From IMG/VR virus record IMGVR_UViG_3300025140_000014, positions 1 through 33,708 of that record: DNA of 33,708 bases; one strand, given 5' to 3'. Below are positions 2,464-22,965 of the stretch, in pieces (positions within the stretch are counted from its first letter, which is position 1; the number at the start of each line of letters is the position of its first letter). The stretch is from a virus. Taxonomy: Duplodnaviria; Caudoviricetes. Made by a program: the position numbers and the translations under genes. Below the pieces are notes generated by a model that was not told where the DNA came from, made no database searches, and saw nothing but the letters and a program-made list of their open reading frames with translations.

Positions 2464-2838
2464 ATGGAATTGAAAATGTACGTATCCGGCAAAATTACCG
2501 GACTGGATCCCGAGGCCTGTAAACTCAAGTTTGCAGCCGTTGAAGCAAAACTCAAAATGATGGGTGTCTCCACTGTGATAAATCCGCTGAACATTGGGAT
2601 CCCTGATTCGTGGAACTGGGATGAAGCGATGGAGCTTTGCATGAGAGTGCTCAAAGAAAAAGCAACATGCATTATTCAGCTCAGGGATTGGGTTGAAAGC
2701 GAAGGTGCAATGCGGGAGTATTATTATGCAAGGAATCATGGATACCGCATTTTTGATGAAGACAACACCGAGGAGATCCAGATGCTTGTAGCCCACTCCG
2801 GTCAATGGCCAGATACTTCCAGATACGAATTCCCATGA
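2464..2838 (+). CDS. DUF4406-like (nucleoside deoxyribosyltransferase-fold) protein; start MELKMYVSG
   Basis: YVSGKITG...INP...CIIQLRDWVESEGAMREYYYA motif pattern. Confidence 0.8.
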   Translation: MELKMYVSGKITGLDPEACKLKFAAVEAKLKMMGVSTVINPLNIGIPDSWNWDEAMELCMRVLKEKATCIIQLRDWVESEGAMREYYYARNHGYRIFDEDNTEEIQMLVAHSGQWPDTSRYEFP

Positions 2839-3719
2839 ACAACAAATGGAACTCACAGGATGAACAATTCCTGAAAGATAATTACCCTCAAAAAGGATAT
2901 CTCTTTTGTGCCAAAAAACTGAACAGAGAACTCTCAACTGTAAAAGCAAGGGTTAAGCGGATGAAACTTAACCGAATCGGGTTTATAATAACCGATCAAC
3001 AGAAGGCTTTCGTAATGGAAAATTACAATTCACTAAGCATTAATGAAATATGCGATCAGGCAAAGCTGAAGCATCACCAGGTATATCAGCTTATTCGCCG
3101 GCAGGGAATTAAACTTTCTGTTTGGAATTGGTACACTTCAGAAGATGAAAAAATTATCAGGGATAATTTCACAGAAATGTCGAATGCTGAAATTGGAGCA
3201 TTAATCAATCGTTCAGCCGACTCGATACATGCCAAATTGCAATTACTGAAATTAAAACGTACTTCTAAGCAGGTAGTTAAAATCAGGATGAGGACATGCA
3301 GCAACTCGTTTTTTCCAAAAGGACACGTTCCTCACAATACAAGGTCAGACGGAGCGATAAGCCTTCGGGTTTATGAAAATGCTAAAAGTGAAAAGTATAT
3401 CCGGATATCACCTGATAATTGGATACCCCTACAGATTTTCAACTGGGAGCAGGTGAATGGTCCGATACCTGCCGGTATGATTTTAAGATGCCTGACCGAC
3501 AATAAACTGGATTGCAAACCAAATAACTGGGAACTGATAAACCGGATTGACCACATGGAGAAGTGCATCGGTCGCGACACGCTTGACGATAAGTATATAA
3601 CAAATATATTAACCCATAGAAACAGGGAGCTAAGACCAGCGATCGCCGAAATGCCGGAATTAATTGAATTAAAAAGAAGTCAAATTAAAACAAGGAGAAC
3701 AATCAATGAGCTTACTTAA
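2835..3719 (+). CDS. Phage protein with Myb/SANT-like repeats and an HNH-like domain
   Basis: WNSQDEQFLKDNY and YTSEDEKIIRDNF repeats; FPKGHVPHN...GPIPAGMIL...DCKPNNWELINR; ATGA overlap with the upstream gene. Confidence 0.7.
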   Translation: MNNKWNSQDEQFLKDNYPQKGYLFCAKKLNRELSTVKARVKRMKLNRIGFIITDQQKAFVMENYNSLSINEICDQAKLKHHQVYQLIRRQGIKLSVWNWYTSEDEKIIRDNFTEMSNAEIGALINRSADSIHAKLQLLKLKRTSKQVVKIRMRTCSNSFFPKGHVPHNTRSDGAISLRVYENAKSEKYIRISPDNWIPLQIFNWEQVNGPIPAGMILRCLTDNKLDCKPNNWELINRIDHMEKCIGRDTLDDKYITNILTHRNRELRPAIAEMPELIELKRSQIKTRRTINELT

Positions 3720-11931: not shown

Positions 11932-12119
11932 GGCAGTACCACTAACCCAACACTATTCAATCCGATCATGTAGCCAGCCTGATCCCGCAAGGGTCAGGCT
12001 GTTTTAATACGTACCGGCCATGGCCGGTACACCGCGTGAATGATCATTGCGTGCGCAAGCAGGTATTATGTAGCGAAACAGACTTGGACTAGAAAAGTAG
12101 TTGGTTTGGGTGGGTCGCC
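11932..12119 (+). ncRNA. Candidate structured ncRNA or ssDNA hairpin element
   Basis: Multibranch fold by eye: outer imperfect stem, hairpin 11975-12001 (GCAA loop), 20-bp palindrome 12011-12030, TGC-GCAA-GCA hairpin. Confidence 0.45.
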
Positions 12120-19482: not shown

Positions 19483-19520
19483 CTAAGTAATCAATCCCTT
19501 ATACATACGTAACAATCATC

Positions 19521-19815
19521 ATGTGATTACATCAACCATGTAATTACATGCTTGTTTGCGATCATTTGCACGATGTAATCGACATACAATAATCATAAGC
19601 AGCCAGGCATATACCGTAATATTATGTATAAAGTAATGACATATCCGGACAGGGCGGGGCGGGGTCTTCCGTCTGAAAGGGGGAAAAAACGGGGTGTTTG
19701 TCAATACTACATAACAGAATATTAGACAAATAGCATTTTATTCACCGGAATGCCGTGATACCGGGAAAAACGTATTTTGACGGATGGAAATTGCTGGCGG
19801 TTGCCTGGTAATTAC
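19521..19815. repeat. GTAATTAC-type palindromic repeats and G-rich tract after terL (candidate packaging site)
   Basis: ATGTGATTACAT 19521, CATGTAATTACATG 19537, GATGTAATCGACAT 19572, GTAATGACAT 19633, GGTAATTACA 19806; GGGCGGGGCGGGG at about 19652. Confidence 0.45.
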
Positions 19816-20379: not shown

Positions 20380-20401
20380 ACCTTCAAACACAGGTATTTA
20401 A

Positions 20402-20438
20402 AACAGAAAACCCCGGTCATGCGCCGGGGTTTTCTGTT
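20402..20438. terminator. Bidirectional terminator between the lipoprotein gene and hicB
   Basis: AACAGAAAACCCCGG-tcatgcg-CCGGGGTTTTCTGTT. Confidence 0.85.
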
Positions 20439-20456
20439 ATATAGAACAATCTAATA

Positions 20457-20861
20457 TCAGATCAGTTTGATAGTTGCAAACTCATTGGCCATTTTATGAA
20501 AGGCTTCTTCGATTTTAGAAACCTGATTTTCGGAAATGTATTGTTTGCCCGTCTTATACTGGCGCATCAGTGAGGCATTGATACCTGCTACCTGTGCAAA
20601 CTTACTGACGTTGATGAAATTGTAATAATTGAACAACGAAGAGATATCATATTTATATTCAAACTCGACGCCATTCAATTCGGCTGGCATCTCTATTCCG
20701 CGTTCGGAATACGATGCAAGCATTTCCTTTACAGAGTTTTCGAAATCGGTTTTCGATTCAGCAACTGTATTGCCTTCGCCGATGATGGTATGATCTAAGT
20801 CTGGTGTAAATACACCGAAGGTACCATCTTTCCCCTTCTCGATTAATGCTGTTGTTTTCAT
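20457..20861 (-). CDS. hicB: HicB family antitoxin with C-terminal HTH
   Basis: IEKGKDGTFGVF...GEGNTVAE...; INVSKFAQVAGINASLMRQY. Confidence 0.85.
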   Translation of the reverse strand: MKTTALIEKGKDGTFGVFTPDLDHTIIGEGNTVAESKTDFENSVKEMLASYSERGIEMPAELNGVEFEYKYDISSLFNYYNFINVSKFAQVAGINASLMRQYKTGKQYISENQVSKIEEAFHKMANEFATIKLI

Positions 20862-20895: not shown

Positions 20896-21078
20896 TTACA
20901 ACCCTATTTGCTTTTTAAGTTTATTGTAAAGACCTGTTTTAACTTCGTGAGCATCGTGCCTTGGTATTTGTATTTGATTACTCGTATCCGGGTGCCCGTA
21001 AATGTCATGCTCTTTGCCATTTCTTATTAAGTACCACCCCTTCTTCATTGCCTTGCGTTTTAATTCCGACCATTTCAT
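20896..21078 (-). CDS. hicA: HicA family toxin (mRNA interferase)
   Basis: 60 aa, basic; GWYLIRNGKEHDIYGHP...IPRH...TGLYNKLKKQIGL. Confidence 0.9.
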   Translation of the reverse strand: MKWSELKRKAMKKGWYLIRNGKEHDIYGHPDTSNQIQIPRHDAHEVKTGLYNKLKKQIGL

Positions 21079-21101: not shown

Positions 21102-21127
21102 CAAATATATAACAAATACGCTATATA
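21102..21127 (-). promoter_or_regulatory. hicAB promoter and putative HicB operator
   Basis: TATATTTG on the minus strand (21102-21109) overlapped by the inverted repeat TATATAAC-N6-GCTATATA. Confidence 0.55.
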
Positions 21128-21146
21128 TACAAGCGTTTTTAAAAAG

Positions 21147-21304
21147 AATAACCCATATGTGGGTTATTTCATTCCGGCAATCTCCGGTTTGAATACGCGG
21201 AATTCCGCGTTTATAGTGGTTAGAATAAACGGGAATTCCCGTTTATTATTTAACTTCAGTCACCTTGCTCACCAAGGCAACTGTGGGGCTGATCACCATA
21301 GTTG
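21147..21304. repeat. Array of six short palindromes/hairpins related to the KilA-N internal palindrome
   Basis: AATAACCCA-tatg-TGGGTTATT; CCGG-caatct-CCGG; ACGCGGAATTCCGCGT; AATAAACGGGAATTCCCGTTTATT; CCTTG-ctcac-CAAGG; CAACTGTGG-N9-CCATAGTTG. Confidence 0.7.
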
Positions 21305-21312
21305 TATCCAAT

Positions 21313-21345
21313 AAAAAACCCGGTCATTCGCCGGGTTTTTCTGTT
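21313..21345. terminator. Bidirectional terminator-like hairpin, near-copy of 20407-20438
   Basis: AAAAACCCGG-tcattcg-CCGGGTTTTT. Confidence 0.75.
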
Positions 21346-21479
21346 GATTGCTTTTCTTGCATGTGCTTTAACAGGATCATTTCAATGTAGTTATTTACAT
21401 TCCTAAAATCATCCTTTGCTTCTCTTTTAAGAAACTCAATAAGCTCTGAGTCCAGACGTAATGATATATTTTCTTTCAT
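21324..21479 (-). CDS. Ribbon-helix-helix (Arc/CopG-like) regulator; start MKENISLRLD
   Basis: ISLRLDSELIEFLKREAKDDFRNVNNYIEMIL; minus-strand -7 box TATCTTTG at 21497-21504. Confidence 0.8.
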   Translation of the reverse strand: MKENISLRLDSELIEFLKREAKDDFRNVNNYIEMILLKHMQEKQSTEKPGE

Positions 21480-21531
21480 TATAAAATGTTTGATTGCAAA
21501 GATATGCAAAATAATTAAAAAAATAAATTAT

Positions 21532-21568
21532 TTTGTGATACATTGTATTGTTTTATAATGTACATTTG
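21532..21568 (+). promoter_or_regulatory. Promoter of the KilA-N operon with possible RHH operator
   Basis: -7 box TACATTTG (21561-21568) overlapped by the palindrome AATGTACATT; divergent from the RHH gene. Confidence 0.55.
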
Positions 21569-21595
21569 TGCCATTATTAATTAATACTTCAAAGT

Positions 21596-22162
21596 ATGAA
21601 TATTCAAAAATTTAATTTTGGTGATGTTGAGATCGAGTTTGATCTCCGTCAAGGAAAAAACATGATGGTAAATGCAACCGAAATGATGAGTGCGTTTCCA
21701 AACAAAAGAATGAGTGATTTTTTAGCAAGCCAGAACACTGAAGATTTCATTTTAGAGTGTTTAAATAACGGGAATTCCCGTTATTTAATTGTTGAAAAAC
21801 GAGACGACTTGATAGTTTCTAGTCAAAAATCTGGCACTTGGATGCACCGTGTTTTGGCTTTAAAGTTTGCTGCATGGTTAAGTCCAAAGTTTGAAGTTTG
21901 GGTATATATAACCATTGATCAACTTATTTCTGGATTTGCCCAAGAAATTCAAGAGTCCATAAGCGAAACCGTAATATTAAAAGCGAAACAAGATGATTTA
22001 AAAACCCAACTTGCAAAACGGGATCCTGACTTTCTGGAATATCTGTTAATTGATCAGAAATTGATCAATGCGAAAAGTCGGAGAAGTAACGCCACAAAGA
22101 ACAAATTCAGGGAGACAATGGAAGATTTATTTTCACAAAAAGGAAAGGAAGAAAAGCAATGA
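21596..22162 (+). CDS. KilA-N domain DNA-binding protein (antirepressor-like)
   Basis: MMVNATEM...GTWMHRVLALKFAAWLSPKFEVWV. Confidence 0.9.
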   Translation: MNIQKFNFGDVEIEFDLRQGKNMMVNATEMMSAFPNKRMSDFLASQNTEDFILECLNNGNSRYLIVEKRDDLIVSSQKSGTWMHRVLALKFAAWLSPKFEVWVYITIDQLISGFAQEIQESISETVILKAKQDDLKTQLAKRDPDFLEYLLIDQKLINAKSRRSNATKNKFRETMEDLFSQKGKEEKQ

Positions 22163-22356
22163 ATACTTGCAAAGAATGTGGTCACTATAACAATCAGGAA
22201 GGCGAACACAAAGGTATATGTATGATAATGGGAATAGAGAGATTAATTTCCAATAATAGTACCATAACTGATTGTTCCGAGGACGATCTGCACCCTTATT
22301 TTGCTGAAGTAGGTGAAAACTTTGGATGTATCCACTTTGATCAGAAATATCGATAA
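22159..22356 (+). CDS. Small Cys-rich hypothetical protein
   Basis: CKECGHY...C...FGCIHF; ATGA-coupled. Confidence 0.65.
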   Translation: MNTCKECGHYNNQEGEHKGICMIMGIERLISNNSTITDCSEDDLHPYFAEVGENFGCIHFDQKYR

Positions 22357-22441: not shown

Positions 22442-22705
22442 ATGAAAAATTCAGGAACAAAACCAAGCATGTCGGTAGAGATTGAAGGTGTTACCCTTAC
22501 CATGGATGCTATTACCCAATTGCAAAACCTTCAGAAGAAAGACAATGAAGATCTTGACGCCATGCGTGTTGATATTGCCGATGCGGTTTGCTTCCTTGCC
22601 AGTTGCCTTGATGATCTGGATAATCCCGATAATGGGAAAATCATTCTGATCATGAATAACCTAAGCCATCACCGCGATAACGTAAACAATTTAAGAAAGC
22701 CATGA
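22442..22705 (+). CDS. Hypothetical protein (paralog of the next gene)
   Basis: IEGVTLTMDAITQLQNLQKKDN. Confidence 0.7.
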   Translation: MKNSGTKPSMSVEIEGVTLTMDAITQLQNLQKKDNEDLDAMRVDIADAVCFLASCLDDLDNPDNGKIILIMNNLSHHRDNVNNLRKP

Positions 22706-22965
22706 GAAAATCACAAAGCGAATCAAAAACAGCTACAATAATCAATGGTGTGGTTCTCACAGAGGAGGCAATTGCCTTTTTAGATTCAATGCAGAATGGT
22801 GATAACGATCTCATTAAAGAGACTCGTGATGAAATAAACAATGCTATATCACAATTGATTCTATACACTGAATGGTGCACTGATAAGCAGATAACCGAAG
22901 TCCTCGATACAATTAAATACATAAACGTTTTTAACCGTAGTCTTAAAGATTTAATGAAACCATAA
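22702..22965 (+). CDS. Hypothetical protein (paralog of the previous gene)
   Basis: INGVVLTEEAIAFLDSMQNGDN; both are 87 aa. Confidence 0.7.
   Translation: MRKSQSESKTATIINGVVLTEEAIAFLDSMQNGDNDLIKETRDEINNAISQLILYTEWCTDKQITEVLDTIKYINVFNRSLKDLMKP

Follow-up and report, generated by a model that had tools for sequence, protein, structure and literature searches.

Why does a phage carry, beside a toxin gene, a row of palindromes related to one that lies inside the coding sequence of its own kilA-N gene? We addressed this question in the window, that is, the whole stretch of 33,708 nucleotides analysed here, which corresponds to a single 33.7-kb virus record whose terminase, Clp-like protease and tail genes indicate a tailed phage. 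The host is likely a member of the Bacteroidales, since the nearest named relatives of kilA-N sit in Prolixibacteraceae assemblies. From the terminase to the next structural block, the elements follow each other in the order lipoprotein gene, hicAB, palindrome array, terminator-like hairpin, Arc-like ribbon-helix-helix (RHH) gene and divergent kilA-N (Table 1). The succession hicA then hicB is that of a type II HicAB toxin-antitoxin system, with a weak match for hicB, and the RHH gene was recognised by a PHROG Arc-like match (E 2.5e-4), its orthologue in locus L047 matching RHH_1 with an E of 1.6e-5. The element at 21102..21109 on the minus strand, a candidate -7 promoter element of hicA, is directed away from the array, and similar motifs are present at 21504 (minus strand, RHH) and 21561 (plus strand, kilA-N). 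A scan of sigma-70 promoters returned fewer sites than in shuffled sequences.

Table 1 Features of the kilA-N locus and their positions in the window
Feature	Position	Strand	Assignment	Remark
Second terminator-like hairpin copy	20399..20441			91% over 32 nt to first copy; the pair brackets hicAB plus array
hicB-like antitoxin gene	20457..20861	-	phrog_497, E 1.3e-4	weak match
hicA toxin gene	20896..21078	-	Pfam PF07927, E 1e-11	adjoins array
Unit 1	21147..21168		KilA-N-type site, non-self	peptide compatible with KNPY[MK]G alleles; catalogue DNA match weak
Unit 2	21171..21190		degenerate palindrome, KPxxxG register	no allele match
Unit 3	21195..21210		KilA-N-type site, non-self, TRNSA allele	P0055; also alone in L008
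Unit 4	21224..21247		KilA-N-type site, self	16-bp core identical to own gene's; 539 bp from gene copy
Unit 5	21257..21283		P22_AR_N-type site, non-self	20/23 to L246 in-gene site
Unit 6	21278..21304		P22_AR_N-type site	fused to unit 5 by shared 6-bp end; 20/23 to L165 in-gene site
Terminator-like hairpin	21314..21345		A and T tails	contains RHH stop codon; right border of array slot
Arc-like RHH small gene	21324..21479	-	ribbon-helix-helix	divergent to kilA-N
kilA-N gene, 188 aa	21596..22162	+	KilA-N winged-helix domain, then long C-terminal helices	predicted homodimer
Second domain helix, kilA-N codons 38-45	21707..21730	+	putative DNA-reading helix	co-varies with palindrome core
In-gene palindrome, kilA-N codons 56-65	21761..21788		putative self-encoded binding site	perfect, 28 bp

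A variable palindrome and the helix with which it co-varies

The initial annotation had placed a perfect 28-bp palindrome within kilA-N; its coordinates are right, and it is the top-scoring palindrome of the whole window. The expectation that this segment is variable and palindromic across homologues was borne out. In a first scan of viral sequences, the palindrome lay at the same kilA-N codons in 32 of 32 loci, some of them duplicates. We then assembled 103 unique kilA-N genes, of which 96 could be anchored and seven were dropped for want of anchors, and a symmetry score of at least 8 was reached by 83 of the 96 genes, compared to 4% of synonymous-codon recodings encoding the same peptides, the other 13 genes falling below this threshold. 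The 4-bp core at positions 3-6 from the centre took 21 different forms among 82 genes, with arms that were almost always complementary. Two or three tandem palindromes are present at the loop in some kilA-N genes (P0083, P0102, P0299, L131, L148, L161 and L162). Among cultured phages, Leef_1, D3 and S9-5 have the in-gene palindrome at the same position and would be tractable models; none was found at threshold in Peternella_1, and PV4-TP1 has only a weak one. Grouped by host, cultured phages of Polaribacter, Pseudomonas and Salmonella have the palindrome and one Winogradskyella phage lacks it. In five cultured phages, the surroundings of the gene contained no stand-alone catalogue site.

Mismatches between the arms at positions 3-10 comprised 4 G.T, 4 A.C and 22 others, without a G.U bias. 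Complementarity extended to the two innermost pairs (74/82 and 60/82 genes), where pairing would be impossible within a hairpin loop. In these comparisons, the in-gene palindrome behaves as double-stranded DNA rather than as RNA or peptide. A peptide-level reading, in which the helix packs on the loop, was ruled out: in L113 and L123 the DNA core of the window is read in another frame (peptide TGIPV) and the helix is kept (KRVHDF and KRMSDF, respectively, for KRMSDF in the window), and non-coding copies of the palindromes exist.

The form of the core followed one helix of the protein. With donors restricted to less than 45-60% backbone identity, the exact core was retrieved from the gene with the nearest helix in 64-72% of 81-82 genes, compared to 5-12% from the gene with the nearest backbone (14 of the 96 genes were left out, 13 for a low score and one for an odd centre). 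On a backbone tree built with helix and loop removed, 53 core changes were counted for 82 genes. Pure phylogenetic co-inheritance as sole cause was ruled out, since the backbone predicts the core no better than random. Excess mutual information with the core peaked at D41 (1.19 bits), S45 (0.86 bits) and S40 (0.78 bits), the maximum over 139 backbone columns being 0.32. At the protein level, where 224 of 234 proteins were used and 10 dropped, the helix triple gave the loop peptide with a purity of 80%; the value was 25% after permutation and 27-47% when any of four residue triples next to it was used instead. None of five sign tests relating a single residue to a base on independent tree pairs reached significance (median p 0.125-1). 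As helix and palindrome are separated by about 55 nt in the gene, they could travel partly as one block. The same arrangement was found in the P22_AR_N genes, 60 of 63 being palindromic in-gene at a fixed codon position, and there the in-gene site followed its helix in 27 of 35 cases, for a permuted mean of 14.7 and a maximum of 19.

The kilA-N product matched Pfam PF04383 with an E of 4e-17 (62.5 bits for a cut-off of 23.8). Its model (pLDDT 90), in which the second helix spans residues 39-44, superposed on the Mbp1 fold with a Z of 8.6 and an rmsd of 2.7 over 82 aligned residues, and on PCG2 with a Z of 7.6; the top seven entries were APSES domains. A Foldseek search gave an E of only 0.065, the PDB sequence search returned nothing useful and the sole PADLOC match was a weak 27-residue stretch of the candidate PDC-S22. 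The homodimer model scored 0.56, compared to 0.00 for the best control, with a run agreement of at least 38% and a pLDDT of at least 76; 20 of 30 homodimers of solved structure attain the mark set for the dimer score, as does 1 of 23 monomers. Residues 38-41 are absent from the listed interface residues. The constant centre and arms of the palindrome may be partly constrained by the protein, because residues 60, 63 and 64 fall within the predicted dimer interface. In PCG2, a fungal relative, helix B enters the major groove and most base contacts are made by the wing rather than by helix B (PMC4333399); judging from helix order, helix 39-44 of KilA-N would be the equivalent of helix B.

Since the helix predicts the core, even where the DNA is read in another frame, the palindrome is very probably the DNA site of the KilA-N protein itself. 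The pairing of helix and palindrome would then represent a natural recognition code of at least 21 specificities with predictable targets, for two domains, KilA-N and P22_AR_N, which are very common in phages and almost without known targets.

The upstream array and its slot

The palindromes described upstream of kilA-N were found where they had been located, and the one at 21224-21247 is the second-best palindrome of the whole window. Three of the six reached a score of at least 7 within 21140-21305 (centres 21157.5, 21202.5 and 21235.5), a number attained in 1 of 2000 Markov simulations. Judged by symmetry alone, units 2, 5 and 6 do not reach significance, because at a looser score of 5 the array was matched by 89 of 2000 simulations. 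The stop-free plus-strand frame noted through the array is unremarkable, as 11% of 5000 shuffles were as good. The codon phase said to be shared with kilA-N holds for units 1-4, but the later units of the sister locus L043 are out of the KilA-N register.

Four of the six units matched in-gene sites of other phages. The proposal that the units correspond to other KilA-N alleles applied to units 3 and 4, was weaker for units 1 and 2, and for units 5 and 6 gave way to a match with P22_AR_N sites. Unit 4 was identical over 18/18 positions to the in-gene site of L003 and unit 3 over 16/18 to that of L087, for a control maximum of 15/18; with its own gene, unit 4 shares just 16 contiguous identical bases. 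Homology is what secures units 5 and 6, with 20/23 identities each, whereas none of about 11,150 control positions exceeded 16/23. They are odd-centred, overlap by 21278-21283, encode the peptides SVTLLTKAT and TVGLITIV, one base off the frame first read, and belong to a second protein family that the earlier reading had missed; none of the window proteins scanned gave a P22_AR_N match. Unit 1 reached at best 12/18 in the DNA catalogue and its peptide fits alleles in 5 of 224 proteins. An unrelated array (L021/L046) contains the identical 16-bp core; a scan of viral sequences for the corresponding gene allele, using its inferred DNA, found none, and the 14 hits for the core were mostly unrelated chance matches. 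For unit 2 the best value was 12/18 among catalogued alleles, with no matching peptide among the 224 proteins. The units, trimmed to 16-27 bp, form a tightly packed row in which two unrelated families are interleaved and even fused, and we consider them probably to be sites kept by selection.

Similar sites were searched for in 247 loci (1.22 Mb), a redundant set from which the loci selected by palindrome pattern (L033-L046 and L130-L167) were excluded. Outside genes, 62 raw hits were obtained, compared to 3 with reversed and 0 with shuffled controls, leaving 56 stand-alone sites in 30 of the 247 loci after de-duplication. A gene of the same family lay nearby for 24 sites, only 2 of which were self copies. 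Non-coding sites were centred at most 45 nt after a stop codon in 20 of 50 cases, for 12% of control positions. Gene remnants or in-frame strings of units were found in L063, L097, L147 and L046, with coding flanks kept in L063; because some stand-alone sites keep such flanks or form such strings, the data point to the loss of neighbouring genes with retention of their sites. An open frame of 244 codons in L046 (1213-1944, the same as L021 from 5857), directly 3' of a kilA-N gene and ahead of a primase-like gene, consists largely of KilA-N- and P22_AR_N-type palindromes. Short open frames that abut the next gene contain tandem in-frame KilA-N sites, five in L147 (730-925) and a series with four catalogue hits in L097 (2388-2657). 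A pattern scan of metagenomes, which selects for packed rows and gives no frequency, added L130, L136, L138 and L146; the rows of KilA-N-type palindromes at L146:1200-1700 and L136:1440-1600 are on GC-rich contigs in which no kilA-N match lies close by. Similar arrays do occur elsewhere, with packed rows in dissimilar contexts (L046, L130, L138, L146 and L147) and clear units at 7 of 21 RHH loci, the window included.

Among these 21 distinct RHH loci, clear units preceded the terminator in seven (the window, L008, L043, L047, L049, L125 and L190), marginal ones in three and none in 11, so that the number of units in the slot of sister phages ranges from zero to about seven. L001, L002, L041, L044, L141 and L150 repeat the window sequence here and are not independent. 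L043 is near-identical to the window through unit 4 and continues with three other KilA-N sites; its seven KilA-N-type units adjoin a gene without KilA-N match, and several units of L043 and L047 matched the catalogues over 18/18 or 22/23 positions. On a contig of run X5, from another study, the hicA start and promoter are joined to the terminator over an empty slot of 18 nt, and another X5 form has units 1-3 plus 212 other bases. One low-depth X2 contig has the arms of unit 1 around the core of unit 4. With regard to polar addition, differences lie at the terminator end in L043, one X2 contig and one X5 contig, and at the other end in one low-depth X2 contig. Cassette exchange at the terminator hairpin is suggested because the cargo in the window, L047 and L125 sits between two copies of it. 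A terminator scan of 335 genomes found 11 places in 9 genomes, with few new slots, and an RHH scan only 3 near-identical loci. HicA was matched in 4 of the 21 RHH loci and in none of five clear-unit slots (L008, L047, L049, L125 and L190), the upstream gene of L190 being HicB-like by eye, with no PHROG match. By these comparisons, hicAB is not required for the array. The sister hicAB locus L003 (2420-2700) has a completely different slot content, with two long palindromes largely unmatched in both catalogues, which are possibly sites of further families.

Possible roles of the array

We favour the reading, to which we give a probability of about one half, that the in-gene palindrome is the protein's own site and that the array is a bank of sites for other KilA-N and P22_AR_N proteins, kept to neutralise them. 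A KilA-N dimer would read two half-sites in double-stranded DNA through its second helix, and binding inside its own gene would limit or disarm the protein. The site of another allele on the phage DNA would serve as a pass or decoy against that allele coming from a co-resident or competing element, a step for which the action of aba toward BstA is a precedent. Such sites would have remained after deletion of neighbouring genes of the KilA-N and P22_AR_N families, and would have been moved as cassettes by recombination, either between units held in common or at the terminator that the loci share. We propose a role that needs mere presence on the phage DNA because the sites are mostly non-self, indifferent to their neighbours and sometimes insulated by terminators. 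The operator/decoy model of the initial annotation survives in this form, with its variable palindrome, the co-variation with the likely DNA-reading helix and the units matching other alleles; its link to HicA expression finds no support, since five of the seven clear slots lack a HicA match and the hicA promoter also occurs with an empty slot. On the other side, a single copy of each site would make a weak sponge in a lysogen, units 1 and 2 have no catalogued DNA allele, units 2, 5 and 6 are imperfect, as decay would give, and 11 of the 21 slots are without recognisable unit. For BstA, several aba copies were needed in trans (PMC8585504).

If the arrays are passes or decoys, they would represent a strain-variable record of competing regulators made of binding sites alone and a layer of phage-phage conflict that our literature search did not find described. 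More tentatively, the system could be a lock-and-key competition, each KilA-N, P22_AR_N or related protein inhibiting DNA that lacks its site, its own codons carrying the key and the arrays collecting the keys of others; if true, this would be an acquired DNA-only immunity record, with multi-immunity and a readable helix-to-base code.

A regulatory input is a further reading, in which foreign or own proteins bound to the units block, loop or activate nearby transcription, so that the prophage senses competitors. Unit 1 starts about 40 nt upstream of what we take to be the hicA -7 element, and the self site of unit 4 and the in-gene site flank the divergent promoter. Many stand-alone sites are just 3' of stop codons, where roadblocks could act as described for the mycobacteriophage stoperators (PMC6550527). 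We nevertheless regard such an input as unlikely, given the missing HicA matches, the hicA promoter found with an empty slot, the L047 and L125 arrays enclosed by two terminators and the scarcity of self sites. Should the in-gene site instead be an autoregulatory operator, the array might be neutral debris from deleted genes, its palindromes persisting as hairpin recombination end points that correct themselves by template switching. The remnants with coding flanks, the imperfect units and the slots without units are compatible with this origin, which appears improbable to us in view of the trimming and tight packing of the units, the full or nearly full matches in L043 and L047, the interleaving and fusion of two unrelated families and the packed arrays in dissimilar contexts.

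Transcription of the array into hairpins acting as RNA decoys, or as antisense to kilA-N-type transcripts, had also been proposed. The stretch does fold into separate hairpins (z -8.2), as any row of palindromes must, and many of the single sites are located in 3' untranslated regions; but the equal counts of G.T and A.C mismatches, the symmetric loop positions and the arrays between terminators are hard to reconcile with an RNA, no candidate promoter points into the array and no Rfam family was found there at gathering score, which makes this account highly improbable. We give hardly any credit to the remaining proposal, that the units are silent donors replacing kilA-N codons 56-65 by gene conversion, although units 1-4 are in the kilA-N codon register, some genes contain two or three units in tandem (P0083, P0102, P0299 and L131) and the X2 contig combines parts of units 1 and 4. 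The identity with the gene is limited to 16 contiguous bases, and no unit includes the codons of the helix; if only the palindrome were swapped, the helix-palindrome pairs would be scrambled, yet they stay matched (80% purity for 25% permuted). Moreover, none of the window proteins scanned comes from a gene matching units 5 and 6, the L043 units lie beside a gene without KilA-N match, and neither reverse transcriptase nor recombinase was found among the window proteins scanned, in a contig that may be an incomplete genome.

Related systems and neighbouring sequences

CRISPR arrays and the orphan immunity gene arrays of Bacteroidales are strain-variable collections of units corresponding to foreign elements. 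Unlike these, the present array is composed of DNA sites of a protein-binding type, without repeats, cas genes or signs of an RNA guide: it has no constant repeat, no Cas family was found among the window proteins scanned and no Rfam family at gathering score. Diversity-generating retroelements (DGR) and cassette switching are likewise not indicated by 16 bp of identity and by proteins scanned, from a possibly incomplete genome, that include no such enzyme. The predicted site within the gene of a phage DNA-binding protein recalls Roi of phage HK022, which Clerget and Boccard reportedly described in 1996 as having its site inside its own coding sequence; Roi is said to concern one phage, to depend on IHF and to lack an allele series or an array of the sites of others.

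A close likeness is with BstA of the Salmonella prophage BTP1, a protein with a KilA-N-like domain whose short cognate DNA element, aba, overlaps its own gene and acts as DNA, allele-specifically, and also in trans when carried on a plasmid (PMC8585504); in our locus the site is predicted. BstA is a demonstrated abortive-infection protein, whereas our KilA-N is known from sequence and model, and aba is an element of 63 bp that lies at the start of the gene and bears direct repeats at its ends (PMC8585504). The word palindrome is absent from the main text of that paper (PMC8585504). No such repeat was seen in our locus among the 20 largest direct-repeat families shown; its conserved element is instead a palindrome in the middle of the gene, coupled to a helix code, with non-self sites in rows. 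By analogy, the bank may work like aba, for many specificities.

As in the repressor and stoperators of Cluster A mycobacteriophages, joint divergence of protein and site has given a range of specificities and sites lie outside promoters; stoperators, however, repeat the phage's own motif in many oriented copies, whereas few symmetric sites of many, mostly foreign, specificities were found here (PMC6550527). The window has one extra self site, and no further stand-alone catalogue site outside the array. The fungal APSES/KilA-N factors Mbp1 and PCG2 share the fold and bind DNA sequence-specifically, but their MCB site is non-palindromic and read mainly by the wing (PMC4333399), and is not known to be self-encoded. 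KilA-N and P22_AR_N have been grouped in the Bro network, in passages that make no mention of such sites (PMC10111431). In our search of mainly open-access literature, neither these palindromes nor such arrays were found described. Taken by itself, an in-gene site is a variation on an idea familiar from aba and Roi, and what sets the present case apart is the variable bank of non-self sites for two protein families. The locus adds a delimited prophage slot for which an empty, a short and a long state are documented, two families per row and a count of self and non-self sites.

Two similar genes of 87 aa (22442-22705 and 22702-22965), with no family match, follow kilA-N; their relatives come after kilA-N in several loci and they are candidates for a cargo controlled by the module. 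Contigs of runs X1-X4 share with 21554-22354 the promoter, the first 90 nt and the end of kilA-N and differ in the middle, the joint running from 21685 to 22085 with 396 other letters between, suggesting that co-occurring phages exchange the middle of the gene. Elsewhere in the window, we observed an intergenic GC-rich perfect palindrome of 20 bp (12011-12030), a palindrome, possibly due to chance, at 3151-3169 within a 304-aa regulator-HNH gene (2805-3719), and overlapping imperfect palindromes (19520-19554) directly 3' of the terminase gene.
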